From positions 130,619 to 194,618 of the forward strand of contig JAKLEN010000005.1 of NCBI GenBank assembly GCA_022711665.1: a DNA stretch of 64,000 nucleotides. Reading direction: 5' to 3'. Positions 9,050-29,629 of the stretch are shown here, in pieces. A program made the translations under genes and the position numbers. The notes under the pieces were generated by a model, which ran no database searches, was not told where the DNA came from, and worked only from the letters and a program-made list of their open reading frames with translations. Source of the DNA: Acidobacteriota bacterium (GTDB lineage: Bacteria; Acidobacteriota; Aminicenantia; Aminicenantales; Saccharicenantaceae). The first letter of the stretch is position 1. Every line of letters begins with the position of its first letter.

Positions 9050-11677
<2,628 letters not shown>

Positions 11678-12364: not shown

Positions 12365-12560
12365 CTCGCACCTTCCTTCGTTTGTTCCGCTTCGCCTTTC
12401 CGCCCCCCATGCTAGGGTCGGGCGGACTAGCCCTCAATCGCCGCGGGGGGTGATAGGCGGGGGGATATTCGGCTCCGGGTGAGGTGGGGAACCCGGCCCC
12501 CTCTTTTTCCTTTGCCCCCGGCGGCGCGCTGAGCATATAATCGCCGGACGGAGGTTCACC

Positions 12561-14687
12561 ATGATGACGAGATCGCGCTTCTTCCCCGCCGGCCTCGCGG
12601 CCGTTGTCTTCCTGCTTGCCGCCTTTCCCGCCGGCGCTCTCCTGGCCCAGGAAAGCCCCTTCGTACCGGAAAAGCTGGCCCGGGAGCTCCGCAACGAGAT
12701 CTCCGGCGACAGGGCCTACAACTATGTCCGCCGCCTGACGCCCTATCACCGCATCATGGGGTCCGAGGCCTACGTCCAGGCCGCGGAGATGCTGGCCGGG
12801 CTGGCCCGGGAGTACGGCTTCGAGAACGTCCGCGTCGTCCGGCAGAAGTTCGACGGCGGCATCAGCTGGGATCCCCGCTCCGCCCGGCTGTGGCTGCTCG
12901 ACCCCGAAGAGGAGAAGCTCTGCGATTTCGCCGAGGTCCCGGTGTCGCTGGCGGTCTTCAGCCGGTCGGCCCGGGCCGAGGCCGAGCTCGTCGATATCGG
13001 GGGCGGCGCCTCGCCGCGGGATTTCTCCGGGATCGACGTCGCCGGAAAGATCGTGCTGACGACGGCTGCGCCGGCCCTGGCCGTGCGGACCGCGGTCTGG
13101 GAGAGGGGGGCGCTCGGCGTCATTTCCTGCGCCAGCGTCCACCCCGACGCCCGCTTCGATACGCCCGACCAGATCGCCTACATCAAGGTCCCGGCGTCCT
13201 GCCCTCCGGGCAAGGCCGCGCCGTGGGCCTTCATGATCTCGGCCCGCCGGCATGGCGCGCTGCAGGACCTGCTCCGGAAGGCCAAGGCGCGGGGCACGCC
13301 GGTCAGGGTCCGGGCCGAGATCGAGGCCGAGGTCCGCGAGCCGGGCGAGCAGGCCTACCTCATGGCCGAGATCCCGGGCTCGGAGATCCATGACCAGGAC
13401 ATCGTGCTCGTCGCCCACCTCGACGAAGAAAGCACGTCGGCCAACGACAACGGCAGCGGCTGCGCTTCCATCCTGGAGATCGGCCGGGCCGTCAACGCCC
13501 TGATCAAGGACGGGCGGATCGCCCGGCCCAAGCGCGACATCGTCTTCTGGTGGCCGAACGAGCACACCTCGGAGTACCAGCTCCTGCGGGAAGAGCCCGA
13601 GGCGCGCCGGTCGTGGCTGGCGGCCGTCAACCAGGACATGGTCGGGGCCCGGCAGGGAATGGGCTCGCGCATCCAGCACATCATCCGGACGCCGCACTCC
13701 CTGCCGAGCTATCTCAGCGACGTCGTTGAGTCCGTGGCCGAGTACGTCATCCTGGGCAACACCTCGTTCCTGGCCGCCGACGAGGCCGGCACGCCCCAGC
13801 CGTACGGCAAACCCATCCTGGCGTCCTACGGCTCGCGCGAGCGCTACGGTGCGATGGTCATCCCGCACAGCGGAGCCTCCGACCAGGAGGTCTTCGTCGA
13901 GGGCGTCGTCGGGGTGCCGTGCGTCGCCCTGATCAACAACCCGGACGTCTACATCCACTCGAGCGACGACGACCTGCCGAACATCGATCCGACCCAGCTC
14001 GAGCGGAACGCCTTCGTGACCGCGGCGACGGCGCTCTTCCTGGCCAACGCCGGGGACCCGGACGTCCCCATGACGGCCGGCGAGATCTACGGCCGGGGCG
14101 TCGCCCGGCTGGGCGCGGAGCTGCGGACCGCGCTGGCCCACGTCCGGGAGGACAAGGCGGGCGCGCCGGAGCGGTCGTTCCGGGAAGCGCGGAACCTGCT
14201 GGAGCGGGCCGGGGAGAGGGAGACCGCCGCGGTGAGATCGGCCCTCGTCTTCGCCTCGGCGGGAGGGGCCAACGCGGCCTACGCCGAGGGCCTGGCCGTC
14301 CGGATCGGCGAAAGGGCCGCGGGCTTCGTCCGCGACCTGGAGGCGGCCTTCCCCGAAGTCGCGGGGCGCGTCCGGAAGGCCGGGCCGGCGGGCGGGCTGA
14401 CCCCGGTCGAGAAGGAGCTGGCCTCGCGCAAACCCGTGAACGCCGGCACGCTGGACGAGTACTTCGGCCGGCGGGGCTGGAGCGTCGGCTACCCCGGCCT
14501 GCATTCGATCATGGCCAAAGAATGCTATTGCTTCGTCGACGGGAAGAGGACCGGTCTGGACATCTTCCGGGCGGTCCAGGCGGAGGCCCTGTCGGCGGGA
14601 GCCTACTATTACGGCACGGTCACGCCGGAAGCCGTCCTGGGGCTCCTCGACGAGGCGGTCAAGAAGGGCGTGCTGAAGCTCCGCTGA
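12561..14687 (+). CDS. M28-family aminopeptidase with PA domain, secreted
   Basis: Signal peptide. M28 metal-binding motifs (HLDEE, DNGSGCA, later EE/H). A TATAAT -10 and GGAGGT RBS lie upstream. Confidence 0.8.
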   Translation: MMTRSRFFPAGLAAVVFLLAAFPAGALLAQESPFVPEKLARELRNEISGDRAYNYVRRLTPYHRIMGSEAYVQAAEMLAGLAREYGFENVRVVRQKFDGGISWDPRSARLWLLDPEEEKLCDFAEVPVSLAVFSRSARAEAELVDIGGGASPRDFSGIDVAGKIVLTTAAPALAVRTAVWERGALGVISCASVHPDARFDTPDQIAYIKVPASCPPGKAAPWAFMISARRHGALQDLLRKAKARGTPVRVRAEIEAEVREPGEQAYLMAEIPGSEIHDQDIVLVAHLDEESTSANDNGSGCASILEIGRAVNALIKDGRIARPKRDIVFWWPNEHTSEYQLLREEPEARRSWLAAVNQDMVGARQGMGSRIQHIIRTPHSLPSYLSDVVESVAEYVILGNTSFLAADEAGTPQPYGKPILASYGSRERYGAMVIPHSGASDQEVFVEGVVGVPCVALINNPDVYIHSSDDDLPNIDPTQLERNAFVTAATALFLANAGDPDVPMTAGEIYGRGVARLGAELRTALAHVREDKAGAPERSFREARNLLERAGERETAAVRSALVFASAGGANAAYAEGLAVRIGERAAGFVRDLEAAFPEVAGRVRKAGPAGGLTPVEKELASRKPVNAGTLDEYFGRRGWSVGYPGLHSIMAKECYCFVDGKRTGLDIFRAVQAEALSAGAYYYGTVTPEAVLGLLDEAVKKGVLKLR

Positions 14688-14768: not shown

Positions 14769-15398
14769 CTAGTGTCCGCCGCTGACCTTGTAGCCCATCT
14801 CCCTCAGCTTGGCCGCCCATCTCTTCTCGGCGGCTTTCGATGCGGCCTGGTCGTAGTACTTGGTTTCGGGGGCCAGGTCCGGGCGCAGGCGCCGGCCGTA
14901 TTTCCGGGCGACGGGGGAGAAGAGCGGCCCGCGCCTGTTCCTCTTGCCCTTGCGGTGCTCCTCGAAGCGCTCTTCGGGGGTCTTTGACGTCTCGCCTACG
15001 TAAACGAACCCTTTTCCCTGGTCTTTGCAGCCCTTGGGGTCGAGCTCGATCACGTAGACCGTCCAGACCTTCGGGTCGCGGTTGACCGTGAATCCCTCCG
15101 ACTTGAGGCACTTGACGGCGGCCCGCTTTTCGCTGTCGGCTTCTTCCCGGAGCAGAAAAGGGCCCGATGTCAGGTCGTCGCGCAGCATGACCAGGTGGTC
15201 CCGAAGCCACTCCGGCCCTTTCCCCTTCAGCAGGGCCGCGAACCGATTCGACGGCTCCTGGGTGGTGATGGCCACATAGAGATTGGGCTTCCCGGGATCG
15301 CGGCGCGGCACGACATCGTCGAGCTCGACCACTAGGACATAATTGCGCGGCTCCCTTATGGACCGCCGCGGGCTTCGCCTATAGAAGCGCTTTCTCAA
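14769..15398 (-). CDS. Tandem GIY-YIG (YhbQ/UPF0213-like) nuclease-domain protein
   Basis: Two consecutive GIY-YIG-like modules (YVLVVEL...LYVAITT...GKG and VYVIEL...FVYVGET...EERFEEH...GKR). Confidence 0.55.
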   Translation of the reverse strand: MRKRFYRRSPRRSIREPRNYVLVVELDDVVPRRDPGKPNLYVAITTQEPSNRFAALLKGKGPEWLRDHLVMLRDDLTSGPFLLREEADSEKRAAVKCLKSEGFTVNRDPKVWTVYVIELDPKGCKDQGKGFVYVGETSKTPEERFEEHRKGKRNRRGPLFSPVARKYGRRLRPDLAPETKYYDQAASKAAEKRWAAKLREMGYKVSGGH

Positions 15399-15711
15399 GG
15401 CTCGTATGCCCCTGCCAGAAGAACTATCACCGGGCGGCGGGGAGTGTCAATGATGCGGGCGCGCGAACCGCAACCTGGGGACACATATCAACGTGCCGCC
15501 AAACCGTGCGCCCGGCCGTCCTCGGCCTGAAGGCGGAAGGGGTCACGGATTTCTTAGAATATTTTTCGGTCGCCGCGAATTTCGACCGCTCTAGCCTGTC
15601 TTTACCATATGAAGCCTGTAGTTTACTCCGGATCAGGTTGTCTGGGAGAGATGCAGAAAACCCAGGTCAACGCCTGTTTACCTGACTTGATGACAGCAGT
15701 TGTCTTATTTC

Positions 15712-15740
15712 TTGACATTTGTCTAACTTTGGGTTTAATT
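15712..15740 (+). promoter_or_regulatory. Candidate promoter (TTGACA-17-TTAATT) with GACA..TGTC palindromic half-sites upstream of the HTH-ImmA regulator gene
   Basis: AT-rich 377-nt intergenic region. Hexamers and two GACA/TGTC inverted motifs (around 15692-15706 and 15714-15723) read from the sequence. Confidence 0.35.
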
Positions 15741-15775
15741 TCCATCGCATCGAGTTTCATGGGGATTTTTAGGGA

Positions 15776-16834
15776 ATGGGGCAGTTTCTGCCGGCCCGTC
15801 TGAAGAAAGCCCGCGAAGACGCCGGGCTGACGCAGGAGAGCTTTGCCCGCTCGCTGGGTCTTTCCTCCGAGTTCATTTCCCTTCTCGAGGCCGGCAAGCG
15901 GGCCCCCTCGCTCGAGACGCTCTCTCGGATCTCCGCCGCTCTCCATAAGGACGCCGCCTTTTTCCTGGGCGATAAGGAGCCGGCCTTTAAAGTCCTGTTC
16001 CGGGCTCCGGCCGTCGAGATCAGCCAGATAGCCCGCCAGGAGCTGGAACGATTCAGACGCTATGTGGACGATTATATGCGTCTCGAGGAAGCGACCGGAC
16101 GCACCCTGGAGCTGGCGCCCCTCTATTCCGGCCGGCTCTCGCCTGAGCGGATGGCCGCCGAAGAAAGGCGCCGCCTGGGCCTCGGGGACGAGCCGGTCCG
16201 CGATATCTTCGCCCTGCTCGAACGCAACGGCCTGCGGATCCTGCGCGGCCCGTTGCCCCCGGCCGTTGCGATCTCCGGCGTTTTCGTCTTCCTCGAGGCC
16301 CGTAACGCCGCTTTCGCCCTTATCAACTCGGCCCAAACCCCGTGCCGCCAGGCCTTCACCGCGGTTCATGAATACTGCCATTACCTCAAGGACCGCAGCG
16401 AGCCGCCGATCATCGATACCCACCGGATCTTCGAGGATGCCGCCAGGCCGAAAGCCGCGCGGAAAGAGGCGCGCTTCGATAAGAAGGATCAGTTCGCCCA
16501 GGAGTTCGCCGCCCACTTCCTGATGCCTCCGGCCAAGGTCCGGGAGATCGTCGAACGGGATTTCGGAGCCGGCCGGCTGTCCTACGACGACGTCCTGCTC
16601 ATCAAGCGCTATTTCGGGGTCAGCGCCCAGGCCATGCTTCGGGCCCTGTGCAATTTGGGGCTGCTCACCGCCGGCCGGCATCAGGAATATGCCCGGCTCG
16701 ATCCGGTTCAGCACGAAAAGAGAGTGTTCGGCGGAACCGACGAGGACTATGGGCCGGGATCGGGGCTTGATTCGGCTGGGATCGTCGTTTCCGACCGGTA
16801 TCGCCTGATGGAACGGGAGGTCTCATCACAATAG
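15776..16834 (+). CDS. Fused XRE-family HTH / ImmA(IrrE)-family zinc metallopeptidase regulator (COG2856-like)
   Basis: N-terminal HTH_XRE (LKKAREDAGLTQESFARSLGLSSEFISLLEAGKRAPSLETLSRISAAL). C-terminal HEXXH (HEYCHY) within an ImmA/IrrE-like domain. Confidence 0.8.
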   Translation: MGQFLPARLKKAREDAGLTQESFARSLGLSSEFISLLEAGKRAPSLETLSRISAALHKDAAFFLGDKEPAFKVLFRAPAVEISQIARQELERFRRYVDDYMRLEEATGRTLELAPLYSGRLSPERMAAEERRRLGLGDEPVRDIFALLERNGLRILRGPLPPAVAISGVFVFLEARNAAFALINSAQTPCRQAFTAVHEYCHYLKDRSEPPIIDTHRIFEDAARPKAARKEARFDKKDQFAQEFAAHFLMPPAKVREIVERDFGAGRLSYDDVLLIKRYFGVSAQAMLRALCNLGLLTAGRHQEYARLDPVQHEKRVFGGTDEDYGPGSGLDSAGIVVSDRYRLMEREVSSQ

Positions 16835-16972
16835 TGAGCGATATGAAATTACTAAATGTGCAATGCAGGCCTCAGGCAGGGAGACTGACTTGATTTAGCC
16901 CCCATTAATAAGCAATGCTTTTGGAAAGATTGTAAGCAGCAGATCAAGATTCGATAATAATAGCCAATTGGA

Positions 16973-18502
16973 ATGGGGTTTTCTATGCCTAAGACAAAAG
17001 CCTATGGGCAAGTAGTTCAATCACAGAAATATGAAATTGCTGATCCCAGGCCAAGCGCTCTAATCGAATCGCTTAGGTCTGTAGGATATAAGCTTTCCAC
17101 AGCGATCGCCGATATCGTTGATAACAGCATTGCGGCCGATGCAAGAAACATTTGGATACGTTTTAAATGGGCGGGAGCGAAATCGCTCATTTCGATCATA
17201 GATGATGGACGGGGAATGACAGAAAGTGCCTTGGTAGAAGCGATGCGGCCTGGCTCAATTAGTCCGATCGTCGAGCGCAGTCAGACCGATTTAGGGCGTT
17301 TCGGGCTCGGCCTAAAAACAGCGTCCTTTTCTCAATGTAGACGCCTTACCGTTATTTCGCGTAGCAAGGGCTGTCGTGCTGTAACCCGCGTCTGGGACCT
17401 TGATTATGTTGTCCGTCATGATGAATGGCGCCTTTTAAGAAGTGGAGATGAGCTTGAGGAAGGCGTAGCCAGTTTCGCGAAGACTGAGACGGGAACTGCA
17501 GTCATTTGGACACACCTTGACCGAATAATAACGCAAGGTGAGAATGCTAATGACGCGTCTGCACATAATCGATTTAATGATTCCATTGACCAAGTGCGTC
17601 AGCACTTGGCGGTTATTTATCACAGGTTTATCGAAGCTGGAGAGGTCAGGATATTTATAAATAACAATCTTGTTAATGGGTGGAATCCTTATCTAGAAAA
17701 CCATAAAGCTACTTATAGAGCACCTGATGAGATTATTCCTTTCGGGAAATCAAAGATTTATTTTCGTGGTTACGTATTGCCTCACAAGGATATGCTAACA
17801 CATGAACAATACGAATCTGCGGCAGGTCCATTAGGCTGGACAGCACACCAAGGATTTTACGTCTACAGAAACAGGCGACTTCTTGTTCCCGGCGATTGGC
17901 TAGGATTAGGGAGTCCAAAGCCGTGGATAAAAGCAGAGCACTATAACTTGGCACGCATATGTCTAGATATTTCTAATGACGCTGATAATGAATGGCATCT
18001 TGATGTGAAGAAATCTATGGCTCGGCCACCTGCTCTGGTTAAAGAAAGACTAACTGAACTTGCCGAAAACATACGAAAGCGGGCACGATCCGTTTTTGCC
18101 CATAGGGGAAAATATGGAGCACGAATTTCGCCCATATCTGAATATGAAAGGCCTTGGGAAGCAAAAACACGTCAGGGATATCGCATATATAAAATAAACC
18201 GAGGTCATCCTGCCGTTAGCCAGGCAATTCAGGCTGCTGGGACGGCAGCTCCCGATATAGAATCGATGCTGAGGATTCTCGAAGAAACCGTGCCGGTACA
18301 GCAGATATGGCTGGACATCGCAGATCAGACTCAAGACGTTGCTCGTCCATTTATCGGTACCGATTATTCTGTTATACGTTCAGATCTCCGGAAAATCTAT
18401 ATTTTCTTAACAAAGTCCGGAATAGATAGGAATACGGCTCTCGCGCGACTGAAGGCTATGGAACCATACAACCACTATACTAATCTTATTAACGAGCTAT
18501 AA
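16973..18502 (+). CDS. GHKL-superfamily ATPase (HATPase_c_3 / MORC-like)
   Basis: Bergerat-fold motifs: N-box DNSIAADA, G1 box DDGRGM, G2 box GRFGLGLK. First gene of the low-GC operon. An alternative ATG at 16985 is possible. Confidence 0.8.
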   Translation: MGFSMPKTKAYGQVVQSQKYEIADPRPSALIESLRSVGYKLSTAIADIVDNSIAADARNIWIRFKWAGAKSLISIIDDGRGMTESALVEAMRPGSISPIVERSQTDLGRFGLGLKTASFSQCRRLTVISRSKGCRAVTRVWDLDYVVRHDEWRLLRSGDELEEGVASFAKTETGTAVIWTHLDRIITQGENANDASAHNRFNDSIDQVRQHLAVIYHRFIEAGEVRIFINNNLVNGWNPYLENHKATYRAPDEIIPFGKSKIYFRGYVLPHKDMLTHEQYESAAGPLGWTAHQGFYVYRNRRLLVPGDWLGLGSPKPWIKAEHYNLARICLDISNDADNEWHLDVKKSMARPPALVKERLTELAENIRKRARSVFAHRGKYGARISPISEYERPWEAKTRQGYRIYKINRGHPAVSQAIQAAGTAAPDIESMLRILEETVPVQQIWLDIADQTQDVARPFIGTDYSVIRSDLRKIYIFLTKSGIDRNTALARLKAMEPYNHYTNLINEL

Positions 18503-18516
18503 GAACGGAGACAGGA

Positions 18517-21333
18517 ATGGAAACCAATGCTGCCCTAGCCATATGCCAAATATTATTAGGGCAAAAGCGGGCCAATAAAGATGCCGCTATTTGCCGTGAA
18601 GACATATTAGCGGTTGTTGAACAATTCGCCGCTCTAGAACCCGCCAAAGGCATAGATAAAGAGGAATTGGTTAAAACGCTTGAGGAACGTTTCACCGTCT
18701 ATGTGCCGAATCATCTTACTCTCGGATCGGATGACAACCATATTGCTTGGTTGTCGGCAAAACGCAGCTCTATTAATTGGCAATATTGGGAACGTTATAA
18801 AAATTATCTTGAAGGGCTACTCCCACCCGCTGCTGTTGAGGGCGTGGGCAAAACCACGGAGGAAATATTACAGCGCCTTGAAGATCCTTATCGTACGGGT
18901 ATTTGGGACAGGCGCGGCTTAGTGATGGGGAATGTTCAATCAGGAAAGACCGCCAACTATTGCGGCCTCATATGCAAGGCGGCAGACGCCGGATACAAGG
19001 TCATTATCGTCCTTTCTGGAATTCATAATAGCCTGCGTAGTCAGACACAAATTCGATTAGACGAAGGATTTCTTGGATTCATGAGCGAACCGCTGGCTGA
19101 CGGGACGCGGGGTTTTGTCCCCGCAGGGGTGGGCATTAACGGCCCTAGCATCAATCCCAATACTGCTACAAATCGGACGGAGCGTGGTGATTTTAATCGT
19201 ACGATAGCTAGCCAATTCGGAATTCATCCAGGCGGCCTGCCTCTCCTCTTTGTTACGAAGAAGAACGTGAGTGTGCTTAGGAACCTCAACAATTGGATAT
19301 CTTCTTGTATGAATGCCAAAGATCCATCGACGACTAGGCGCTTTGTCAGAGATGTCCCTCTTCTGGTGATTGACGACGAAGCCGATCTCGCGTCGGTAGA
19401 TACGCATTTTCAAGAGCTTGATGAAAACGGCAACCCTGACCCTGATCATAATCCGGCCGAAACCAATAAGCAGATTAGGAAACTCCTACGAGCATTCGAA
19501 AAGGTTGCCTATGTCGCCTATACGGCTACACCGTACGCGAATATTTATATTTATGATAGAGGATTTACGCCCCTATTAGGCGACGACCTTTTTCCTAGAA
19601 GCTTCGTTGTCAGCATTCCTCCCCCGAGTAACTATATGGGTCCTGCGCGTGTATTTGGGATTTCGGAAGACGAAGATGCAGGCCTAGAGGAGGTAACGCC
19701 ATTACCGGTAATACGAAACGTAAAAGATCATGCAGTCAGCGCTGATATGAATGAAACCCGGGGATGGATGCCCCCTCGACTAATCGCCGGAACTGACCAT
19801 ATGCCCCGTTATCTGGGAGAACGACGTATACCTCCGACATTACGAGAAGCAATTCTCTCCTTTATTTTAGCATCGATAGTACGCAAATCTCGTGGCTGTC
19901 TGCCCGCACATAATTCTATGCTCATCCATGTCGTCCGCTATACAAAGGTTCAAAAGCTTGTTTCAGATCAAGTAGAAGAAACTCTCCGCGAGATAACACA
20001 GCGCCTGAGGTATGGGGACGGCAGCCGCCGTCCGACGATAACCGATGAGTTCCGGAATCTTTATCTTAAAGATTTCAAGAAAACGACAGAAAGCTGTAAT
20101 AAAATCCTAAACGACAGGCTCGAGCTTCCAGTCTGGACAGCAATCACGCCGGCCTTGCTATCTACAGCGACGAGCATAAAAGTAAAGATTATTAACGGTA
20201 GCGCTGGGGATGTTCTAGATTATGAAGAGAATAAGAAGACTGGGATGAACGTGATCGCTATTGGAGGAGACAAACTCTCGCGCGGGCTAACTCTTGAGGG
20301 TCTTTCCATCAGCTATTTTTTACGGGCTTCTCGTATGTACGATACGTTAATGCAGATGGGGCGGTGGTTCGGCTATCGTGGGCAATATATTGACATTTGC
20401 CGACTCTATACTACTTCAGAGCTAATAAAGTGGTTTGCTCATATCACTGCAGCAGCAGAGGAGCTTCGGCATGAGTTTGAACGGATGGTATCTGTGGGCG
20501 GTACGCCGAAAGATTATGGACTGAAAATCCGTGCACACCCTGCCCTATTAGTAACATCGGCTGTTAAGATGCGTCACGGGACTTCAATGAGGATATCTTT
20601 TTCTGGCGAGATTAGTGAAACGATAATATTCCAGCGGGAACCTTGGTGGGTCCTAAGTAATTATGATGCGACCGTAGGTCTGCTTTCTAGCCTGCCAATG
20701 GAAAAATATTTAGGGTTTCGTAATTCCGGTTATACATGGCAAGAAATTCCCATAGAGACGGTACTTCAATATTTGAATGAGTACAAGACTCACAATGATG
20801 TCCGTCGGGCGGACACCGCGTTGCTGGCAAAATATATCCGGGCACAAAACGAAAATGGTGAATTAGCTAAATGGACCATTCATTTGTGCTCTTCAGGTAA
20901 AGCTGACGCAATACGTGAAGCAATAGGCAATCAGAAGGTTGGCCTTATTATGCGCGCGCCATTCCCTCAGCCTTATGACCCGCAAGCGGATCGATATACA
21001 ATCAGACGGCTGGTAAGCCCGACTGATGAACTTGTAGATTTAAGCAAAGAACAGCAGCAAGAGGCAATTCGGTTGACTCAAGAACGATGGAAAGCTGAGC
21101 ATAGAATGGGCGAGCCGGAAAGAGCAGGCGGAAGGGAGATACGTAAGGTCCGTGATAAGAACAACGGATTATTGCTTCTATATCCCATCGGGCCGCCTAG
21201 CTTTTATCCTGCCGGAACGAAGCCAATTATAGGGATGGCCATTAGTTTTCCAAAGAGCGACACCGCAAAAGAAGTGATTTATACAGTGAACAATGTGTTT
21301 ACGCAGCAGGGCGGAGATGATGAAAGCTTCTGA
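18517..21333 (+). CDS. Z1-domain protein (large P-loop NTPase, 938 aa)
   Basis: Walker A GNVQSGKTANY and a Walker B-like LLVIDDEAD. The size and position next to AIPR, GHKL and Dcm genes match the Z1 family. GGAG RBS upstream. Confidence 0.75.
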   Translation: METNAALAICQILLGQKRANKDAAICREDILAVVEQFAALEPAKGIDKEELVKTLEERFTVYVPNHLTLGSDDNHIAWLSAKRSSINWQYWERYKNYLEGLLPPAAVEGVGKTTEEILQRLEDPYRTGIWDRRGLVMGNVQSGKTANYCGLICKAADAGYKVIIVLSGIHNSLRSQTQIRLDEGFLGFMSEPLADGTRGFVPAGVGINGPSINPNTATNRTERGDFNRTIASQFGIHPGGLPLLFVTKKNVSVLRNLNNWISSCMNAKDPSTTRRFVRDVPLLVIDDEADLASVDTHFQELDENGNPDPDHNPAETNKQIRKLLRAFEKVAYVAYTATPYANIYIYDRGFTPLLGDDLFPRSFVVSIPPPSNYMGPARVFGISEDEDAGLEEVTPLPVIRNVKDHAVSADMNETRGWMPPRLIAGTDHMPRYLGERRIPPTLREAILSFILASIVRKSRGCLPAHNSMLIHVVRYTKVQKLVSDQVEETLREITQRLRYGDGSRRPTITDEFRNLYLKDFKKTTESCNKILNDRLELPVWTAITPALLSTATSIKVKIINGSAGDVLDYEENKKTGMNVIAIGGDKLSRGLTLEGLSISYFLRASRMYDTLMQMGRWFGYRGQYIDICRLYTTSELIKWFAHITAAAEELRHEFERMVSVGGTPKDYGLKIRAHPALLVTSAVKMRHGTSMRISFSGEISETIIFQREPWWVLSNYDATVGLLSSLPMEKYLGFRNSGYTWQEIPIETVLQYLNEYKTHNDVRRADTALLAKYIRAQNENGELAKWTIHLCSSGKADAIREAIGNQKVGLIMRAPFPQPYDPQADRYTIRRLVSPTDELVDLSKEQQQEAIRLTQERWKAEHRMGEPERAGGREIRKVRDKNNGLLLLYPIGPPSFYPAGTKPIIGMAISFPKSDTAKEVIYTVNNVFTQQGGDDESF

Positions 21334-22348
21334 GGAACTAATTCAGATATGGAACCTTGTTATGGAAGACAAGGGGGATCTACCAGGCTATTATTACCGC
21401 AGGATGCAGAAAGAGCTTCCTTTCCCCGTTTATGCTGGGATTATTAATCCAGGACGTTTGCGCTGTATTTCTATATTGGTGGATACAGAAGCTCTTGGCG
21501 TTGCTGCTCAGCGAGACGAAACAAATGGTTATTCCGTAAGAATTGAGTTGGCAGAAGCTGGCACACATAAGTCATTCATTCACCTCGCCTCAAGAATGGA
21601 GGCAGGGAATGATGAATTATTCGTATTCCTATGCGCTGATTTGCTTGGGTTATGCCGTTCGGATATGGAGGGCCACAAGGCTGTCGCCGCAATCTTTCAC
21701 CGACTATCTTATTGGCGTCGATTTTTTCAGCGACATGGCGGAGGATTGAGCAGAGAAGAAATCATTGGTCTTTATGGAGAACTCCGATTTCTTGAATTAT
21801 TGCTTGATTATGGAGTTCCGTCAGAATTAGCAGTCATGGCATGGAAGGGACCCCTTGGAACAAATCAGGATTTTCTCTTTGGTTCTAAAGCAGTGGAAGT
21901 GAAGTGCACGACTGCCAATGAAGCAGATATTGTAAAAATTACTAGTGAGAGGCAGCTGGATTCTACTGGGCTAACAACACTATTCCTTTTTCATCAAGCC
22001 TTTGACTTCCGGGAGAATTCTGGGAGAACATTAAAAAAGCTTATCGGTGATATTAAGAAGCGTCTAGAAGACACATCGCCGCACGCAATAATCCTATTCG
22101 AGGAATTACTTATTTCGGCCGGATATTCGGGCGAGTATAAACCTGTTTTCGACAACTATGGGTTCACGGAAAGGAAGCAATCGGCGTTCGAAGTCCAGCC
22201 AAGTTTCCCACGTATCGATGAGACAGCACTACCTGGTGGAGTTTCCCGTGTATCCTACCAATTAGATTTGGCTGTCTGCCATAAGTATAGGATTCATATT
22301 GAAGCGATCTTTCGTGCTTTAATGACTGGAGAGCAGAGTGGACAATGA
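21317..22348 (+). CDS. PD-(D/E)XK-superfamily nuclease (predicted)
   Basis: D...EVK core (QDFLFGSKAVEVKCT). Start ATGATG overlaps the Z1 stop by ~17 nt (track ORF begins at 21293). Translational coupling is suggested. Confidence 0.6.
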   Translation: MMKASEELIQIWNLVMEDKGDLPGYYYRRMQKELPFPVYAGIINPGRLRCISILVDTEALGVAAQRDETNGYSVRIELAEAGTHKSFIHLASRMEAGNDELFVFLCADLLGLCRSDMEGHKAVAAIFHRLSYWRRFFQRHGGGLSREEIIGLYGELRFLELLLDYGVPSELAVMAWKGPLGTNQDFLFGSKAVEVKCTTANEADIVKITSERQLDSTGLTTLFLFHQAFDFRENSGRTLKKLIGDIKKRLEDTSPHAIILFEELLISAGYSGEYKPVFDNYGFTERKQSAFEVQPSFPRIDETALPGGVSRVSYQLDLAVCHKYRIHIEAIFRALMTGEQSGQ

Positions 22349-24419
22349 ACGGGTAATAGTTCAGTTCCATCAGCAAATCGAGAGTGAAATCACAGAATCC
22401 ACACGGCAGGAGGGCGGCTTTGGCTCGGGTGAGTTCCGTGAGAACGTGCTGACGAGTATTTATGCGGAAGAGCTCTCGGCTGCGGGCGTGCTTGAATCGC
22501 CGGAAGTATGTCATTTGGAGGGCGGTAAAGGCAATGCATCTATTAAGGTGAATGGGTATGGGGTTCCGGAAGAGGATTCGCGGATAGACCTATTTATTAC
22601 GCTTCATTATGGCCCTTCGGATGAGATTGTCACTATAAATGCAGCGGAAGTCGAAACGGCGTTTAAAAAATTAGAACGTTTCTTTGGAAAGAGCCTAGAC
22701 GGCCTGTATAAAGAGCTGGATCCGGCTGGCGATCAATACTTGATGGCGGAGCATATCCAAGGGCTAAAGGCCAAAATGGACCGAGTCTGTTTCTATTTAT
22801 TTACTAATGCCAGACTGGCACAGAGAAAGGAAAAAGAACATAAGTCCGATATCTTTGGGCTTGAAGCTGTTTATGAAGTATGGGACCTGGAGAGATTTCG
22901 CCGCCTGAGAGAAAGTGGAACCAGCTATGAGGCATTGGTGGTCAACCTCGAAGATCAGAAGCTGGGAGGTCTTCCGTGCGTTCTCTTAGGAACAAATGGA
23001 GGCAATTCCCAAACTTGCGTGACTTTGTTCCCTGGGGAACTGCTTTGTGAACTCTATGATGAGTACGGGCCACGCCTGCTTGAACTGAATGTAAGGTCAT
23101 ACCTACAGGCGCGAGGCAAAGTAAACAAAGGAATAATGGAGACCCTCCAGAAAAGTCCACAAGATTTTTTAGCTTATAATAACGGGATAACGGTCGTTGC
23201 CGAAGAGATCATATTCGGAAAACTTTCTAATGGTTCACTGGGAATATTAGAGCTTCGTGGAATGCAAATCGTAAATGGAGGCCAGACAACCGCATCGATA
23301 CATAGGGCAGCAAAGGACTTCGGGGCTGACCTTTCGTGCGTAAGTGTGCAGGGGAAAGTGACGGTCGTTGACGGGGCCCGTTTTCAAGATATAGTGCCCT
23401 TAATATCACGATTTTCAAATACCCAAAATCGCGTAACAGAAGCTGACCTGAGCGCTAACCATCCTTTCCATATCGGGATGGAAAGAGTTTCTAGGCGGGA
23501 ATGGACGCCCGACCAACGCAGTATGTGGTTCTATGAACGCGCACGCGGAAGCTATCAGACGGCGAAGATCCGTGAAGGCAACACTCCTTCGAAAAGGAAG
23601 GCTTTTGAAGATAGGTACCCCAGTAACCAGCGGTTTTCGAAAGAAGATTTGGCCAGATTCGAAAACACTTGGCTTGGTTTGCCCCATATTGTTAGTCGTG
23701 GAAGTCAAAAGAACTTTGTCCACTTCATGCATGAGCTGGGGCAATACGACGAAGGTTGGGAGCCAGATATGGATCAGTATCGGCAGTATGTTGCGAAGGG
23801 GTTACTTTTCAAAGAAGCTCAAAGGGTAATTCGGGCAGATAGGAGGATAACAGCATATCAGATTAATGTAGCGGCCTATACCGTTGCCCTTCTAGCCGAA
23901 AAAACAGCCCGCCGACTAGACCTAAAACGTATATGGCGAATGCAGAAGGTTTCTGAAGCGACGTCAGAACTGCTGGCGGCTTGGGTGCCAATAGTATTTA
24001 AACACCTTCCTGATTATGCAGCAAAGGTGGGGAAACACATTGGTGAGTCCTTCAAGGCGTCCGCATGCTGGGATAATATCCGAGGGTTGGATCTGGTTGT
24101 GCCGAAAACTATTGATAAAGAACTCGTGGATGTCCCTGCAGGGGAAGACGAATTATCCGCAGCCAGGCGGCGTGATAGCAGGAAGCTGTCTTCAAATGAC
24201 AAGAATAACATAGCACGGTGCATGGAACTTGGGCAGAAAGAATGGCTGGCGATAGCTCTTTGGGGCCAGAAAACTAACATTCTTGCGGATTGGCAAAGGG
24301 GAATTGCCCGTACTCTTTCCGGATATGCTGCCGAAAAATGGGTAAAAAGGCCAAGCTCCAAACAGGCCTATCATGGTGTTCACATGATCGAAAGTGCACG
24401 AACGGCGGGTATCTTATAA
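22338..24419 (+). CDS. AIPR-family protein (abortive infection phage resistance family)
   Basis: N-terminal region with the GEFRENVLTSIYAEELSAAGVLE..RIDLFITLHY pattern typical of AIPR proteins. GTG start overlaps the previous stop by 11 nt. Size (693 aa) fits the family. Confidence 0.7.
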   Translation: MDNERVIVQFHQQIESEITESTRQEGGFGSGEFRENVLTSIYAEELSAAGVLESPEVCHLEGGKGNASIKVNGYGVPEEDSRIDLFITLHYGPSDEIVTINAAEVETAFKKLERFFGKSLDGLYKELDPAGDQYLMAEHIQGLKAKMDRVCFYLFTNARLAQRKEKEHKSDIFGLEAVYEVWDLERFRRLRESGTSYEALVVNLEDQKLGGLPCVLLGTNGGNSQTCVTLFPGELLCELYDEYGPRLLELNVRSYLQARGKVNKGIMETLQKSPQDFLAYNNGITVVAEEIIFGKLSNGSLGILELRGMQIVNGGQTTASIHRAAKDFGADLSCVSVQGKVTVVDGARFQDIVPLISRFSNTQNRVTEADLSANHPFHIGMERVSRREWTPDQRSMWFYERARGSYQTAKIREGNTPSKRKAFEDRYPSNQRFSKEDLARFENTWLGLPHIVSRGSQKNFVHFMHELGQYDEGWEPDMDQYRQYVAKGLLFKEAQRVIRADRRITAYQINVAAYTVALLAEKTARRLDLKRIWRMQKVSEATSELLAAWVPIVFKHLPDYAAKVGKHIGESFKASACWDNIRGLDLVVPKTIDKELVDVPAGEDELSAARRRDSRKLSSNDKNNIARCMELGQKEWLAIALWGQKTNILADWQRGIARTLSGYAAEKWVKRPSSKQAYHGVHMIESARTAGIL

Positions 24420-24422
24420 GCT

Positions 24423-25979
24423 ATGACGATTACAAAGTACCCCATTCCCGTTATTGATCTATTTGCCGGTCCAGGGGGACTTAGTGAGGGATTCTCTTCC
24501 TATGAGGAAGGATCTACTTTTTGTGTACGGCTTTCAATTGAAAAGGACAGATTCGCTCATCGGACTCTTGAGTTGCGGGCATTCTTTCGTAGTTTCGACG
24601 AAGATCCTCCCTCTGAATATTATAATTACCTTAAACATCAAATTAGTCGCGAAGAGCTATTCAAGATGTTTCCGACGCAAGCCAATAAGGCCAGGAACCA
24701 AGCTTGGCAGGCTGAACTAGGGAACAGGAAATATCCCAAAGCTCAGGTAGATAAGAAGATCAGGACTGCTCTGGGAAGACATGGTGACCGCTGGGTTCTT
24801 ATCGGAGGTCCTCCCTGCCAAGCTTATTCACTCATCGGCCGCTCTCGGATAAAGGGAAAGAGTATTAAGGATTATGAATCCGATAATCGCCATTTTTTAT
24901 ATCGCCAATATTTGAAGATATTGGCTGAACATAAGCCTCCTGTATTTGTAATGGAAAACGTAAAGGGATTATTATCCACGGAAATTAACGACCAGAGGAT
25001 TGTCGAACATATCCTCCGCGATTTACGGAACCCTAGTCAAGCAGTACGGAATAGTTCAAAGCATAATGGTGCCGAATATGTACTTCATTGTTTAGCGCCG
25101 ACAAAGAAGCAATACACAGAACTGACTCCTGAGGACTTTATCGTAAAGTCTGAGGCATATGGAATACCGCAAACGCGTCACAGGATCATTTTACTGGGAA
25201 TCCGAGCCGACGTACGCGTAAAACCAAAACACTTGATACCACAAGAAAGCACATTGTCGGTCGAACAAGCGATTGGAGATGTTCCGCCCGTAAGGAGCGG
25301 CATATCAAGAATGATTGATTCTTATGAACGATGGCTAGCGGTGGTTCGTAGCATTACTCGCTCTGAATGGCTAAAGGAGGGGGCTGTTACGAAAGAGATT
25401 CGTGGCGCTATAAAAGCCGTAGCAGAAAGCCAAAATCTGGCTTTTTCTCGGGGGGGGGAGTTCGTGAAAACTGTAGCTGCCCCCCAAATAATGGCGGAAT
25501 GGTTTAGGGATACCAGACTGCGCGGCGTATGTAACCATAGCACTCGCAGACATATGGAGAGTGATTTGCATCGGTATTTATTCGCTTCAGCATATGCGCA
25601 AGTTAATGGACATTCCCCACGACTGATTGATTTTCCGAAGGGATTGTTGCCAGATCATGCCAATGTCGGAGATGCGATCCGCGACCGGAAGTTCGGGGAT
25701 CGTTTTCATGTCCAAGTATCAAACCGTCCTGCATCCACGGTCACGGCCCATATATGCAAAGACGGTCACTATTTTATTCATTATGATTCAAAACAATGTC
25801 GTAGTCTTACGGTTCGTGAAGTAGCACGTCTGCAGACATTCCCAGATAATTATTTCTTTGAAGGGCCGAGGACTGAACAATATAGACAGGTCGGAAATGC
25901 GGTACCGCCGTTATTAGCTATTCAAATTGCCGATATTGTTGCGGGGATTTTTTATCAGGCTGGCAACCAAAAGGCATAA
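24423..25979 (+). CDS. DNA (cytosine-5)-methyltransferase, Dcm-type
   Basis: Motif I DLFAGPGG, motif IV GGPPCQAYS, motif VI ENVKGL, motif X VGNAVPP. Starts 3 nt after the AIPR stop. Confidence 0.95.
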   Translation: MTITKYPIPVIDLFAGPGGLSEGFSSYEEGSTFCVRLSIEKDRFAHRTLELRAFFRSFDEDPPSEYYNYLKHQISREELFKMFPTQANKARNQAWQAELGNRKYPKAQVDKKIRTALGRHGDRWVLIGGPPCQAYSLIGRSRIKGKSIKDYESDNRHFLYRQYLKILAEHKPPVFVMENVKGLLSTEINDQRIVEHILRDLRNPSQAVRNSSKHNGAEYVLHCLAPTKKQYTELTPEDFIVKSEAYGIPQTRHRIILLGIRADVRVKPKHLIPQESTLSVEQAIGDVPPVRSGISRMIDSYERWLAVVRSITRSEWLKEGAVTKEIRGAIKAVAESQNLAFSRGGEFVKTVAAPQIMAEWFRDTRLRGVCNHSTRRHMESDLHRYLFASAYAQVNGHSPRLIDFPKGLLPDHANVGDAIRDRKFGDRFHVQVSNRPASTVTAHICKDGHYFIHYDSKQCRSLTVREVARLQTFPDNYFFEGPRTEQYRQVGNAVPPLLAIQIADIVAGIFYQAGNQKA

Positions 25980-26066
25980 TGACTCATACATTTCCCAAGA
26001 CCGCTTTTGCCCATCTTAGCAATTCATGTGCATAACCTCCAATATGGGGAGCACGATATCTTAGAA

Positions 26067-26513
26067 TTAGCCGGGACACCTATCGGCTTCCTTTTTAATA
26101 TTAGGTTTTCGCCGGACTAACTGAAGAAGCCGTATTTTCCATTCGGGATTTTCCACCTCGCATTCCCATATTGTGAAATAAGTCCATCCCAATACTTGTA
26201 CCTTCTGGGCAATCTCAATATCCCGCCTTTGATTCTCAACGAATTTCTTTTTCCAAAAATCAGTTCTTGACTTTGGCATGTATGCATACTTACATGATTT
26301 ATGCCGATGCCAGTAACATCCATGAACGAATATTGCAATCTTGTATTTTGGAAGTAAGATATCGGGGGATCCCGGCAAGATACCGGGAGTCAAAGAAAAA
26401 CGAAATCCCATGTGATGTAGCTGCGAACGAGTTCGGATTTCGGGCATAGTATTTCGTGACCTAATCCTTGACATATTCCAACTGCGCTTTGCCGGGGGAA
26501 TTCGGTCAGTCAT
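26067..26513 (-). CDS. vsr: Very-short-patch-repair endonuclease
   Basis: FVHGCYWHRH and TxPExRxxL motifs. 148 aa. Convergent with the methyltransferase gene. Confidence 0.95.
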   Translation of the reverse strand: MTDRIPPAKRSWNMSRIRSRNTMPEIRTRSQLHHMGFRFSLTPGILPGSPDILLPKYKIAIFVHGCYWHRHKSCKYAYMPKSRTDFWKKKFVENQRRDIEIAQKVQVLGWTYFTIWECEVENPEWKIRLLQLVRRKPNIKKEADRCPG

Positions 26514-26965
26514 TCATAAGCCACCCGTTTTTTAGATTAACAGGATAGCTTATATAGAACAAGAAGCTATGAGACAATGAAATTCCGTCCGTGATGGAGA
26601 TAAAAAGCCTCCGCATGGAACATTGGCCAACTTCCAGACCAACGGTGAATTCCCCATGACGACTGCCAATTGTTCAGGGTCTGGGCATATATGAATAATT
26701 TTATTCGTAAGCGCGAAAACATACTGCTTTGCGGTGTCGTTCCCTTATGGGAACGGGCGTATAGGGGGGCTGCCTGAGGGAATGGGCCTCGTGGGCTTGG
26801 CCCTAGCCGTAAGGCGGGACGAAAGATCATGACGAAATGAGCGCTACGGAGAGCTACGGCATTTAACCCAGGGGCGGGTCCTCCCGCGACTGGCCGGAGT
26901 CCGAGCAGGAGGTCTATTGGCGCCTGGATGGGTCGCTGCCGGAGGACTGGACTGTCTGGCACTCG

Positions 26966-27409
26966 ATGAGGGTCCGGACGACCGGCGCGGAGTTCGCCGA
27001 ATCGGACTTCATCATCACCGACCCCGCCCGTGGCGTCCTCGGCCTTGAGGTCAAGGGCGGCCTCCTCGACAAGAAGGACGGCGCCTGGCGGCAGAACGGC
27101 CAGGCCATGAGATCCTTGCCGCTCGACCAGGCGCACCGCTTCATCATGTTACTCCTGGCCAAGTTCAGGGAAAAGGATCGTATCTCGCCGCCGATCGGCG
27201 TGGCCGCCGCCTTCCCGGACACAGATTTTGAAATCCCGGCCTCCCAGGGCGACCTTGTCGCTGATGTCGCGCCCGGGACCGGCCGGTATGCGGTGCGGAT
27301 GAACATCACCGTCAGCCGGGCTTGCGGCGCCCTACGGATCGTCATTTCCCGCAGCGAGCTCGATAAGGACCCGATCCTGAAGCGCCTCGCCGAGGACGGA
27401 AGGAGATAG
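26966..27409 (+). CDS. NERD-domain protein (PD-(D/E)XK-like nuclease-related domain)
   Basis: DFIITDP...GVLGLEVKGG core. Intermediate GC. The upstream frame is closed by TAA at ~26864, so 26966 is the only ATG start. Confidence 0.5.
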   Translation: MRVRTTGAEFAESDFIITDPARGVLGLEVKGGLLDKKDGAWRQNGQAMRSLPLDQAHRFIMLLLAKFREKDRISPPIGVAAAFPDTDFEIPASQGDLVADVAPGTGRYAVRMNITVSRACGALRIVISRSELDKDPILKRLAEDGRR

Positions 27410-28357
27410 GTGCCGATGGCATTTGATCGTGTTCATGACGCCCGCATCAGGGCCGCGGCCTTCGAGTGGCTGACGGATCAGGTTCTGCGGCATGGAGACG
27501 TGCTGCCCCGCAGCCTCCTGGTCCAGGGATTCTATTTCGGGGACTCGAGGGTTCCGCTGGTCGGCCCGCAGGGGATCTTCAAGCCTCGCATCCTCGAGCT
27601 GCCGCTGTCGATTACGACGGCGCCGGAAGGCCCCTATAACGATGCCTTCGGCCCGGATAAATTGCTGCGCTACCGTTACCGGGGGACCGACCCGGACCAT
27701 AGAGACAATCGGGGGCTGCGGGAGGCCATGGCGAACCGGTTGCCGCTGGCTTATTTCCATGGGATCGCGCCCGGACGATATATGGCGGCTTGGCCTGTCT
27801 TCATAGTCGGCGACCATCCTGATCCATTCTCGCCGTCGTTCTCGGTAGCTGTCGATGACAAGGGGCATTTGGGTGTCGTCGCCGAGGACCGAAATGAGCG
27901 TGGCGCCGTGGGCGAGGAAGGCGATACCGCCCGGCGGCAATACATAACGTCCACCGTTCGGGTCCGGCTCCACCAAAGAGCCTTCAGGGAGCGCGTGCTC
28001 GAGGCCTATCGCCGGCAATGCGCGTTCTGCCGGCTCAGGCATGAGGAGCTGCTCGACGCCGCCCACATCATTCCGGACGCGAGCCCGGAAGGCGAGCCCG
28101 TGGTCCAGAACGGGCTGGCGCTGTGCAATCTCCATCATGCGGCGTTCGACAAGTTCTTTATCGGGGTGCGGCCTGACTACGTCATCGAGATCCGCCCGGA
28201 TATCCTGAGAGAGGGGGACGGTCCAACGTTGAGGCACGCGATCCAGGGGCTGAACGGGACGAGCATCCTGGTGCCCGAGCGGCTGAGTCTAAGGCCGGAT
28301 CAAGCGCTCCTTTCGAAGCGTTATGAGCGGTATCGCGAGGCCGCCCGGGAATACTAG
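27410..28357 (+). CDS. HNH endonuclease, COG3440/HNH_2-like (candidate modification-dependent type IV restriction enzyme) with uncharacterised N-terminal domain
   Basis: C-terminal CAFCRL...LDAAHIIP...NGLALCNLHHAAFD HNH signature. ~200-aa N-terminal domain (GIFKP...YRYRGTDPDHRDNRGL). The likely ATG is at 27416, preceded by GGAAGGAGA. Confidence 0.75.
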   Translation: MPMAFDRVHDARIRAAAFEWLTDQVLRHGDVLPRSLLVQGFYFGDSRVPLVGPQGIFKPRILELPLSITTAPEGPYNDAFGPDKLLRYRYRGTDPDHRDNRGLREAMANRLPLAYFHGIAPGRYMAAWPVFIVGDHPDPFSPSFSVAVDDKGHLGVVAEDRNERGAVGEEGDTARRQYITSTVRVRLHQRAFRERVLEAYRRQCAFCRLRHEELLDAAHIIPDASPEGEPVVQNGLALCNLHHAAFDKFFIGVRPDYVIEIRPDILREGDGPTLRHAIQGLNGTSILVPERLSLRPDQALLSKRYERYREAAREY

Positions 28358-28442: not shown

Positions 28443-28943
28443 CTAGGCCCGAAGCAGGGCCGAGTAGATGGCGTGGTCGGCGGCCGAGAAGCAGCAGAAT
28501 GTCACTTCGATCCCGCAAGCCGGGTGCCCGTCGAGGAATTCCCGTACGGCCTTGACCGCGACCGCGGCCGCGAGCTCTATGGGATAGCCGTAGACGCCGG
28601 TGCTGATCGAGGGGAAGGCGATCGACCGTACGCCGTTCTCAAGAGCAACTTCGAGCGACTTGAGATAGCAGCCGCGGAGGAGTGCAGGCTCGTTCGCGCG
28701 GCCGCCCCGCCAGACGGGCCCGACCGTGTGGATGACGAACCTGGCCGGGAGCCTGTAGCCCTTCGTGATCTTGGCCTCGCCGGTCGCGCATCCTCCGAGG
28801 GTGCGGCATTCGGCGAGTAGCTCGCGTCCCGCGGCGCGGTGGATGGCCCCGTCGACGCCGCCTCCGCCGAGGAGCGAGGCATTCGCGGCGTTGACGATCG
28901 CGTCGACCTCGAGGGTCGTGATGTCGGCGACGACGGCTTTCAT
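28443..28943 (-). CDS. Macro-domain protein (YmdB-like O-acetyl-ADP-ribose deacetylase / ADP-ribose hydrolase)
   Basis: [23 protein letters not shown] and [15 protein letters not shown] motifs. 166 aa. Confidence 0.85.
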
Positions 28944-29089
28944 TTATGCCTCTCTTCGGGGCCTTCCTTACTCTAGGGGCGGAACGCGGGGCTGTCAAAT
29001 CGTTCTGCAGCCGGGCCGTCCCAGGCGACGCGTTGAGACGATCGAATCCGAGACGGGCGCGGGCCGCGAAAAGGCCGGGGAAATCGCCT

Positions 29090-29118
29090 TTGACAGCAAG
29101 ACGCTATAACGCTATGAT
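29090..29118 (+). promoter_or_regulatory. Sigma70-type promoter of the TA operon (TTGACA-17-TATGAT) with ACGCTAT direct repeats overlapping the spacer/-10
   Basis: Hexamers and the repeated ACGCTAT(A/G) read from the sequence. GGGAGGG RBS before the ATG at 29136. Confidence 0.5.
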
Positions 29119-29135
29119 GTTTAAGGGAGGGCAGA

Positions 29136-29369
29136 ATGACTGGTTCAAACAAGCGCGTGACGATCTATCTCAAGCCGGAGTTCCATAGGGCGCTGAAGGT
29201 CAAGGCCGCGGAAACCGAGTATTCCATCTCCGACCTGGTCAATTCGGCCGTCAAGCGGGCGCTCCTCGAGGACGCCGTCGATCTCGAGGCCTTCGAAAAG
29301 CGGGCTGGAGAGCCGCTGCTTGCCTTCGAGGACGTCGTCAGGGACCTCAAGCGCCATGGAAAGCTATAG
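29136..29369 (+). CDS. Type II antitoxin (RHH/CopG-like fold predicted)
   Basis: 77-aa acidic protein immediately upstream of, and overlapping, a ParE/RelE toxin gene. The N-terminal KRVTIYLKPEFHRALKVKAAE pattern fits a ribbon-helix-helix antitoxin. Confidence 0.55.
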   Translation: MTGSNKRVTIYLKPEFHRALKVKAAETEYSISDLVNSAVKRALLEDAVDLEAFEKRAGEPLLAFEDVVRDLKRHGKL

Positions 29370-29616: not shown

Positions 29617-29629
29617 GCTGGATCGGCCT

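Follow-up and report, generated by a model that had tools for sequence, protein, structure and literature searches.

The genes mzaABCDE were reportedly first named by Gao et al. in 2020. They have been called a validated defence system (PMC9523054), and an E. coli Mza protects 10^3-10^4-fold against T4 whose DNA is unmodified or carries hydroxymethylcytosine (hmC), and less strongly against glucosylated T4; it does so without growth arrest, and its MzaD, when purified, cuts DNA (bioRxiv 10.1101/2022.06.16.496414). Operons that unite a MORC/paraMORC ATPase, a Z1 helicase, a novel restriction-fold nuclease, an AIPR protein, DCM and VSR have been predicted to be restriction-modification (RM) systems of high lateral mobility that integrate in hotspots together with other mobile elements, with a GHKL ATPase that loops or remodels DNA between recognition and cleavage sites in the model of Iyer et al. 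(PMC2292703). For CglI, ATP-dependent translocation of double-stranded DNA by the DEAD-Z1 motor activates the cleavage carried out by a separate nuclease (PMC5861437). Here we describe a related locus in a stretch of 64,000 nucleotides (nt) from an Acidobacteriota bacterium (assembly GCA_022711665.1, contig JAKLEN010000005.1, positions 130,619 to 194,618), hereafter the window. It contains a sharply bounded low-GC island with six genes, which we hold, with a probability of roughly 85%, to be a horizontally acquired, self-contained Mza-type defence cassette in a hotspot of a Candidatus Aminicenantes chromosome (68% GC), behind a gene for a fused helix-turn-helix and ImmA-like protein (HTH-ImmA).

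The island spans 16,821-26,748 (no strand), has 46.1% GC, and is delimited by maximum-likelihood change points and a foreign di- and tetranucleotide signature. In the composition profile of the window, the 1-kb bins from 17,001 to 26,000 have a GC of 0.454-0.477, as compared to a mean of 0.684 (standard deviation (sd) 0.028, minimum 0.588) for the bins outside 16-27 kb, which places the island bins 7.9 sd under the outside bins (z = -7.9), and the remainder of the window ranges from 0.59 to 0.75. A two-change-point likelihood fit, with GC of 0.461 within and 0.684 outside, puts the left change point at 16,821 (support 16,765-16,831), 13 nt 5' of the TAG stop codon of HTH-ImmA (16,832-16,834), and the right one at 26,748 (support 26,722-26,767), about 235 nt past the vsr start codon (26,513), and fine GC profiles likewise drop near 16.8 kb and 26.7 kb. 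The GC at third codon positions (GC3) is 0.39-0.47 in the six island genes versus 0.88-0.95 in core host genes, the Karlin dinucleotide distance (x1000) between island and host is 135 versus 22-43 for host segments of 9.9 kb, and the tetranucleotide correlation with the host is 0.50 for the island versus 0.95-0.97 for host segments.

An earlier sequence-only reading of this DNA had described an abrupt compositional island with mostly ATG starts inside and GC3-rich codons outside, and this description is borne out, as sliding-window GC, codon usage, and di- and tetranucleotide measures all break clearly at the edges and ATG is the start codon in five of the six island genes. Its left edge near 16.84 kb agrees with the change point at the end of the HTH-ImmA gene. 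Low GC was rightly noted, but the value given, 42-45%, is slightly under the 0.461 that we obtain over 16,840-26,560; similarly, the range given for the right edge (26.56-26.85 kb) includes 26,748, whereas the end coordinate of the island was set about 190 nt short. Intermediate values characterise the immediate flanks (14.7-16.8 kb and 26.75-29.6 kb), with GC of 0.63-0.64, GC3 of 0.76-0.86 and delta* of 102 and 63, respectively, and the sharp island is therefore nested in an older, mildly atypical region. Given the total absence of amelioration, the acquisition was probably recent. Elsewhere in the window, a single 1-kb bin of reduced GC (0.626) was seen at 54,001-55,000, at the start of a 727-amino-acid (aa) open reading frame (ORF; 54,209-56,392).

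The island consists of six intact ORFs with nearly no spare DNA between them, and the genes overlap or sit 3-15 nt apart in an operon-like manner. The first, MzaB (16,973-18,502, + strand), is a GHKL/MORC-like ATPase (Pfam HATPase_c_3 1.5e-29; PADLOC MzaB 2.2e-129, the match spanning 485 of 500 profile positions) in which GHKL motifs I-III are intact (N-box DIVDNS, DDGRG, GRFGLG); the MORC4 ATPase is its sole PDB relative by sequence, and gene callers place its start at 16,985 (505 aa). It is followed by MzaC (18,517-21,333, +), a DEAD-Z1 superfamily-2 helicase-like motor of 938 aa (Pfam Z1 8.2e-79; PADLOC MzaC 1.3e-231) with intact Walker A (GNVQSGKT), Walker B (LVIDDEAD) and Z1 (DTLMQMGRWFG, for DTxxQxxRxFG) motifs, for which a sequence search of the PDB detected no relative. 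MzaD (21,293-22,348, +; start per gene callers 21,317), a DUF4420 nuclease of the PD-(D/E)XK type (Pfam DUF4420 8.7e-65; PADLOC MzaD 4.6e-30), overlaps both MzaC and MzaE and retains the D...EVK core. MzaE (22,338-24,419, +) is an AIPR protein (Pfam AIPR 2.5e-88, AIPR_N 1.4e-35; PADLOC MzaE 7.3e-105), again with no relatives in the PDB sequence search. Only 4 nt past its stop begins a Dcm-like C5 cytosine DNA methyltransferase of 518 aa (24,423-25,979, +; Pfam DNA_methylase 1.3e-42; PADLOC DrmMII/MTase_II) with intact motifs I (FAGPGG), IV (PPCQ), VI (ENV), VIII (QTRHR) and X (GNAV); the PDB search returned generic C5-methyltransferase relatives alone, M.HaeIII and DNMT1, from which its target sequence is not inferable. 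The cassette is closed by the very-short-patch repair endonuclease Vsr (26,067-26,513, - strand), convergent with Dcm (Pfam Vsr 2.7e-25; PADLOC Vsr 1.7e-25), with intact FVHGCYWHRH (FVxGCxWHxH) and PDI motifs. The cassette represents the known Mza defence system in a form without MzaA and with linked Dcm and Vsr. A consensus scan also matched a promoter-like site (TTGTAA-17-GATAAT; 16,930-16,958, +) inside the island, 15 nt 5' of the MzaB start, a match that is no proof of function. In public annotation, the methyltransferase is called from residue 82 (437 aa; 16,150-17,463 of the contig that we number L001), which loses motif I at residue 14, and Vsr is uncalled on the ERZ27257455 contig.

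The same six-gene cassette is present in three unrelated metagenome contigs (L018, L021 and L071), in the order MzaB-C-D-E-Dcm with Vsr nearby and with amino-acid identities of 47-77% per protein. This conserved order in unrelated contigs implies that the genes travel as one unit, and we conclude that the six constitute one mobile module. Homologues of the cassette occur dispersed among unrelated lineages, on plasmids and in viral contigs. Of 21 Mza-like loci, drawn from plasmids, IMG/VR contigs and metagenomes, most have Vsr and/or Dcm next to the BCDE core. An HTH-ImmA gene beside MzaBCDE was found in none of these 21 loci (0/21) and in none of L018, L021 and L071; this gene belongs to the recipient site and not to the cassette. 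The nearest MzaC homologues are 65-70% identical, the closest being that of L018 (70%). The cassettes of L018, L021 and L071 have GC of 0.50-0.57 versus 0.463 for the window cassette, and, judged from GC3, the donor probably had a GC content below that of any sampled cassette relative. Plasmid and phage collections and IMG/VR were searched for a vector or donor, and the candidates were rejected, as Mza-like cassettes there reach at most 46% MzaC identity.

Some of these loci have features of their own. In L018, a split AspBHI_N/Mrr_cat methyl-directed restriction gene (11,313-12,506) lies between Dcm and Vsr, an odd pairing of a 5-methylcytosine-dependent nuclease with an adjoining 5-methylcytosine methylase, and an IS481-family transposase (13,565-14,488) follows Vsr. 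In L071 (10,602-14,751), the Mza-Dcm-Vsr cassette adjoins a Bil operon (ubiquitin-like, BilA-D), another defence-island context, and separate genes for a CapH-like HTH protein and a CapP-like peptidase lie at the Bil operon, about 4 kb from the Mza genes.

At the locus itself, L043 (ERZ27272664) comes nearest, among the sequences available, to showing the site unoccupied; it is a contig of 66% GC in which the shared genes stand in the same order and orientation as in the window (identities: metK 86%, GIY-YIG 73%, HTH-ImmA 65%, NERD 60%). In L043 an intact NERD gene follows 59 nt after HTH-ImmA and there is no cassette; in the window the 9.9-kb cassette sits exactly between both genes. What remains of NERD in the window is a pseudogene (26,867-27,256, +), recognised by its translation, a partial Pfam NERD match, alignment with intact homologues and tblastn limits. 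The fragment lies in a 147-aa ORF (26,966-27,409), the frame of which is open upstream to a stop at 26,864-26,866 with no start codon between. Intact homologues have 183-253 aa, and their alignment to the window is confined to about 26,858/26,900-27,256; the start of the window gene is lost, and the C-terminal third is lost too. An unrelated C-terminus follows and runs into the HNH_2 gene. Since the NERD homology ends at 27,256, a second rearrangement breakpoint lies near this position. Two comparisons with the L043 spacer yielded no junction marker: window 16,862-16,897 was rejected as a left-junction marker (p ~0.12, not significant), and window 26,701-26,900 has no similarity to the spacer and the NERD N-terminus (p ~0.96).

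The gene at the left anchor, HTH-ImmA (15,776-16,834, +), encodes an XRE-HTH domain fused to an M78 Zn-peptidase of the ImmA/IrrE kind (Pfam HTH_3, Peptidase_M78) and is like RmrA and CapH-CapP fusions, with PADLOC matches to RmrA (1.2e-32), capP (7e-15) and capH (6e-10), an HExxH motif present as HEYCH, a full-length PDB relative (9vzy, 6e-9), 64% GC and GC3 of 0.79. Orthologues of this gene number 367 at an E-value of 1e-40 or lower; those considered here, of 65-76% identity, precede differing same-strand defence cargo and are located at 6,213-7,274 in L043, 8,544-9,644 in L044, 4,826-5,926 in L045, 10,001-11,125 in L046 and 2,156-3,214 in L049. In L044 the cargo is SNF2 helicase, DUF1156 and DUF499 genes of GC 0.46-0.58 versus 0.66-0.75, with left synteny to the window (metK 87%, STK-TPR 63%). 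L045 and L049-L052 carry an HSP70-UvrD-SbcCD-like set (HSP70-TPR, UvrD, metallophosphatase, SMC-like), and L046/L047 carry a type I RM system with AAA_14 and HNH_2, with STK-TPR (58%) as left synteny. In L045 the stop codon of HTH-ImmA overlaps the start of the next gene. The syntenic relatives are distant, at 60-87% protein identity. This variable cargo means that, in the clade, the stretch that follows the STK-TPR kinase gene is a hotspot for defence and toxin-antitoxin genes, with the window island as one among several alternative contents, and the HTH-ImmA gene resembles a conserved 'leader' of the swap slot. The claim that the whole methyltransferase-linked cassette was horizontally acquired is therefore upheld, by its conserved six-gene order elsewhere, by the cassette-free L043 and by the other cargo behind the orthologues.

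How the cassette entered is a separate matter. Homology among the HTH-ImmA orthologues ends about 13 nt before the window stop codon, at the change point 16,821, and the junction within the last HTH-ImmA codons fits either an insertion or a recombination inside a donor HTH-ImmA copy. In the latter case, the cargo might have been swapped by homologous recombination, namely by a cassette that came with a donor HTH-ImmA copy and replaced the resident cargo, the left crossover falling near the 3' end of HTH-ImmA. This route, which is compatible with our main explanation as it concerns only the way of entry, is a possibility that we regard as somewhat unlikely and yet as the best of the alternatives. 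The orthologues do occur with differing cargo in contigs of very different GC (51% overall in L045), their homology stops exactly at the GC change point, and HTH-ImmA has an intermediate GC3. Furthermore, DNA 3' of HTH-ImmA in L046 (about 11,150-11,300), in which no gene is called, can be aligned to the beginning of the HSP70-like gene in L045/L049 (where an IGIDLGTTNS-type N-terminus would be encoded) and looks like an HSP70 remnant of an earlier cargo replacement, which suggests serial replacement. Nonetheless, an HTH-ImmA gene next to the Mza genes themselves was met neither in the 21 loci nor in the three nearest cassettes, the CapH-/CapP-like genes of L071 being about 4 kb off. Moreover, no right-hand anchor common to the other loci was identified, and the NERD remnant favours an insertion upstream of NERD over a clean replacement.

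A transposition-like or site-specific insertion appears unlikely. It would have left its short target in two copies, this target being either GGAACGGG or a longer att-like core from the 3' end of HTH-ImmA, and the recombinase would have acted in trans or have since been lost. Local alignment of the junctions gave a candidate imperfect direct repeat of 23-26 nt, with a left copy at 16,795-16,817 (+; GGAACGGG at 16,810-16,817) and a right copy at 26,731-26,757 (+; GGAACGGG at 26,750-26,757), both of which abut the change points. An inverted repeat of 10 nt, CCTCAGGCAG, occurs at 16,870 and 26,770, and the closest cassette is followed by an IS481-family transposase. Both repeats are marginal, however, the direct one having 20 matches in 26 aligned columns with gaps (p ~0.06 versus shuffles) and the inverted one p ~0.06 versus shuffles as well, and chance alone would yield about 0.5 shared 8-mers. 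The two repeats also point to different element ends, and no terminal inverted repeats lie directly inside the putative duplication. Among the genes scanned for domains between 7.7 and 38 kb, those of the island included, there was no integrase or transposase, and in the window the tRNA scan found no tRNA genes and no Rfam families were present. The sequence-only reading had likewise reported no integrase, transposase or tRNA, and its finding of no clear direct-repeat att sites at the edges agrees with our standard repeat search, which returned nothing there, but it missed the marginal imperfect repeat on both change points. It had rightly dismissed a shared 8-mer, ATGAAATT, as meaningless; with copies at about 16,843 and 26,577, both inside the low-GC segment, we rejected it as a junction repeat.

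Far less credible is an ancestral chromosomal segment whose low GC was kept by selection or by a local mutation bias. The island is indeed present in all 14 contigs of the species in the collection, as exact-protein look-ups with MzaC, HTH-ImmA and the NERD remnant found it on every carrying contig (14/14). The same low-GC segment as an ancestral feature of the locus, raised earlier as the case that would speak against acquisition, was however not seen in syntenic relatives, which are either cassette-free (L043) or filled with other cargo (L044, L046). A GC3 of 0.39-0.47 versus about 0.92 for the genome, the foreign oligonucleotide signature and the dispersal of cassette homologues over unrelated lineages, plasmids and viral contigs also argue against it.

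As for the host, MzaC and both flanking proteins were recovered on 14 contigs, the longest of 583 kb, which their sources label Candidatus Aminicenantes, and the relatives of the flanking M28 peptidase are from metagenome-assembled genomes (MAGs) of Aminicenantes/Acidobacteriota. Contigs from three separate read sets (ERZ27257455, SRR18360463 and SRR4244739), assembled by different pipelines, are 100% identical to the window across 19-23 kb that include both junctions. A chimera of two organisms, of which an abrupt shift in composition in a MAG would be a classic sign, is therefore practically excluded by these identical junction-spanning contigs, and contigs of up to 583 kb, high-GC host DNA on both sides and left synteny with relatives (metK, STK-TPR) also speak against it.

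Horizontal acquisition of a Mza-type cassette hence remains our preferred reading, against which several points have to be weighed. No cassette-free relative at >90% identity was found, and because L043 has only 60-86% protein identity, the exact junction and target duplication are not definable. Contigs of the species all carry the island and, because they are 100% identical, they offer no presence/absence polymorphism and no within-population variation for dating. The immediate donor is unsampled. The MzaA profile matched none of nine proteins in and around the island, which is without unassigned coding space; as a control, the profile recognises the plasmid locus L024 (5.7e-58), and it also left unmatched the ORFs upstream of MzaB in L018 and L021, the two nearest cassettes scanned. 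Finally, the validated Mza of Salmonella and E. coli includes a sigma-factor-like MzaA and lacks a methylase of its own, so that its discrimination may not be methylation-based.

Going by the literature on related systems, methylation-protected restriction is the most likely mechanism of the window cassette. In such a restriction-modification-like scheme, Dcm would mark host sites as self, and ATP-driven translocation by MzaC together with GHKL-driven remodelling by MzaB in a MzaBCDE complex would bring the MzaD nuclease onto unmarked DNA. Vsr would repair the T:G mismatches that arise from deamination of 5-methylcytosine at Dcm sites and thus limit the mutational cost to the host. HTH-ImmA may control the genes downstream of it, as CapH-CapP fusions have been described upstream of DISARM operons; what is shown for it here is a positional association with variable defence cargo. 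Here we speculate further, at long odds, that HTH-ImmA could be a portable 'leader' of defence slots in Aminicenantes, which would serve both as recombination anchor for swapped systems and as damage-responsive switch over the MzaA-less Mza, in place of MzaA.

The neighbourhood of the island contains further genes. To its right, an HNH_2 endonuclease gene (27,410-28,357, +; Pfam HNH_2 4.1e-11; PADLOC HNH 1.5e-20; GC3 0.76) is absent from L043 and belongs to an older, moderately atypical flank. It is followed at 28,443-31,513 by a Macro-domain gene (-) and by a gene (-) that joins a PIF1-like helicase to a WYL domain, and precomputed Pfam matches place an RHH/ParE toxin-antitoxin pair at about 29,136-29,616; Macro, RHH/ParE and PIF1-WYL genes are typical neighbours in defence islands. 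To the left, a GIY-YIG domain gene (14,769-15,398, -; Pfam GIY-YIG 1.3e-5) lies divergent from HTH-ImmA in the variable region and is 73% identical to the L043 copy. The intergenic region between these two genes has an AT-rich dip (15,600-15,800, GC 0.455), with a promoter-like site at 15,450-15,423 (-), and is presumably a regulatory region of both. The M28 peptidase gene further left (12,561-14,687) has a host-like GC3 of 0.93. Related contigs with an orthologue number more than 25, and in none of them is a neighbouring gene shared with the window; L044 and L046 are without an M28 gene between STK-TPR and HTH-ImmA; the gene may have moved into the hotspot. A search for the empty site by way of this core gene in genome and metagenome contigs was discarded, as the relatives, at 52-84% identity, had no shared neighbours.

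Taken together, all components of the locus fall in known categories, and the composition is what recent transfer would lead one to expect. As a case of horizontal transfer the locus is clear, yet ordinary, involving a system of a known kind, and it does not overturn current understanding. What is added to the sequence-only reading is the identity of the system as Mza, the hotspot as its site, the cassette-free relative together with the disrupted NERD gene in the window, and the variable cargo behind HTH-ImmA. The locus cleanly illustrates a defence cassette, complete and unameliorated, within a chromosome whose GC exceeds its own by more than 20 points; the host belongs to the uncultured phylum Aminicenantes, the defence repertoire of which is little studied. 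A Dcm/Vsr-coupled, MzaA-less Mza is also natural material for testing self/non-self discrimination by cytosine methylation, and the slot behind a conserved HTH-ImmA, with five different cargos, represents a further case in the emerging picture of regulator-headed defence hotspots.

With classical genomic and defence islands the window island has in common an atypical composition, defence genes, absence from syntenic relatives, and toxin-antitoxin and nuclease neighbours, and it differs from them by having no tRNA target, integrase or clear flanking repeats. HTH-ImmA shares XRE-HTH, M78 and HExxH with the CapH/CapP regulators and their fusions (bioRxiv 10.1101/2022.04.27.489752) and with RmrA, the antitoxin of RosmerTA (PMC10440598), and its place upstream of same-strand cargo resembles the gene order, as listed, of CapH-CapP-fusion-associated DISARM (Lau et al.). 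In contrast to CapH/CapP and RosmerTA, it has no cognate small toxin, was not imported with the cassette and has no counterpart directly beside the other Mza genes examined. CglI/NgoAVII (PMC5861437, PMC4267653) offer a DEAD-Z1 motor subunit, a separate nuclease, a cytosine methyltransferase and translocation-activated cleavage as points of likeness, whereas the nuclease of CglI (R subunit) is of the B3-PLD type, and proteins of the GHKL ATPase, AIPR and DUF4420 kinds are absent from CglI.

The operons of Iyer, Abhiman and Aravind from 2008 (PMC2292703) share with the cassette the whole MORC/paraMORC-Z1-NRE-AIPR-DCM-VSR domain set, cytosine methylase and Vsr included, and as in these operons the cassette has both a cognate C5 methyltransferase, in a linkage conserved in L018, L021 and L071, and a linked Vsr. 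The Z1/PD-(D/E)XK/cytosine-methylase 'type II' systems of Miller et al. from 2022 (PMC9523054) share the domain set too, but are reported to be about 20% identical to MzaBCDE, whereas the window cassette matches the canonical Mza profiles strongly; the descriptions of both groups are computational only. The closest system is Mza as modelled in PADLOC-DB, from which the window cassette, known here from sequence alone, differs in its host phylum (Aminicenantes/Acidobacteriota), in the lack of the sigma-70-like MzaA, in a C5 methyltransferase directly after MzaE and in the closing Vsr, and with which it shares MzaB, C, D and E, collinear and all on one strand, with very strong PADLOC scores and intact motifs.

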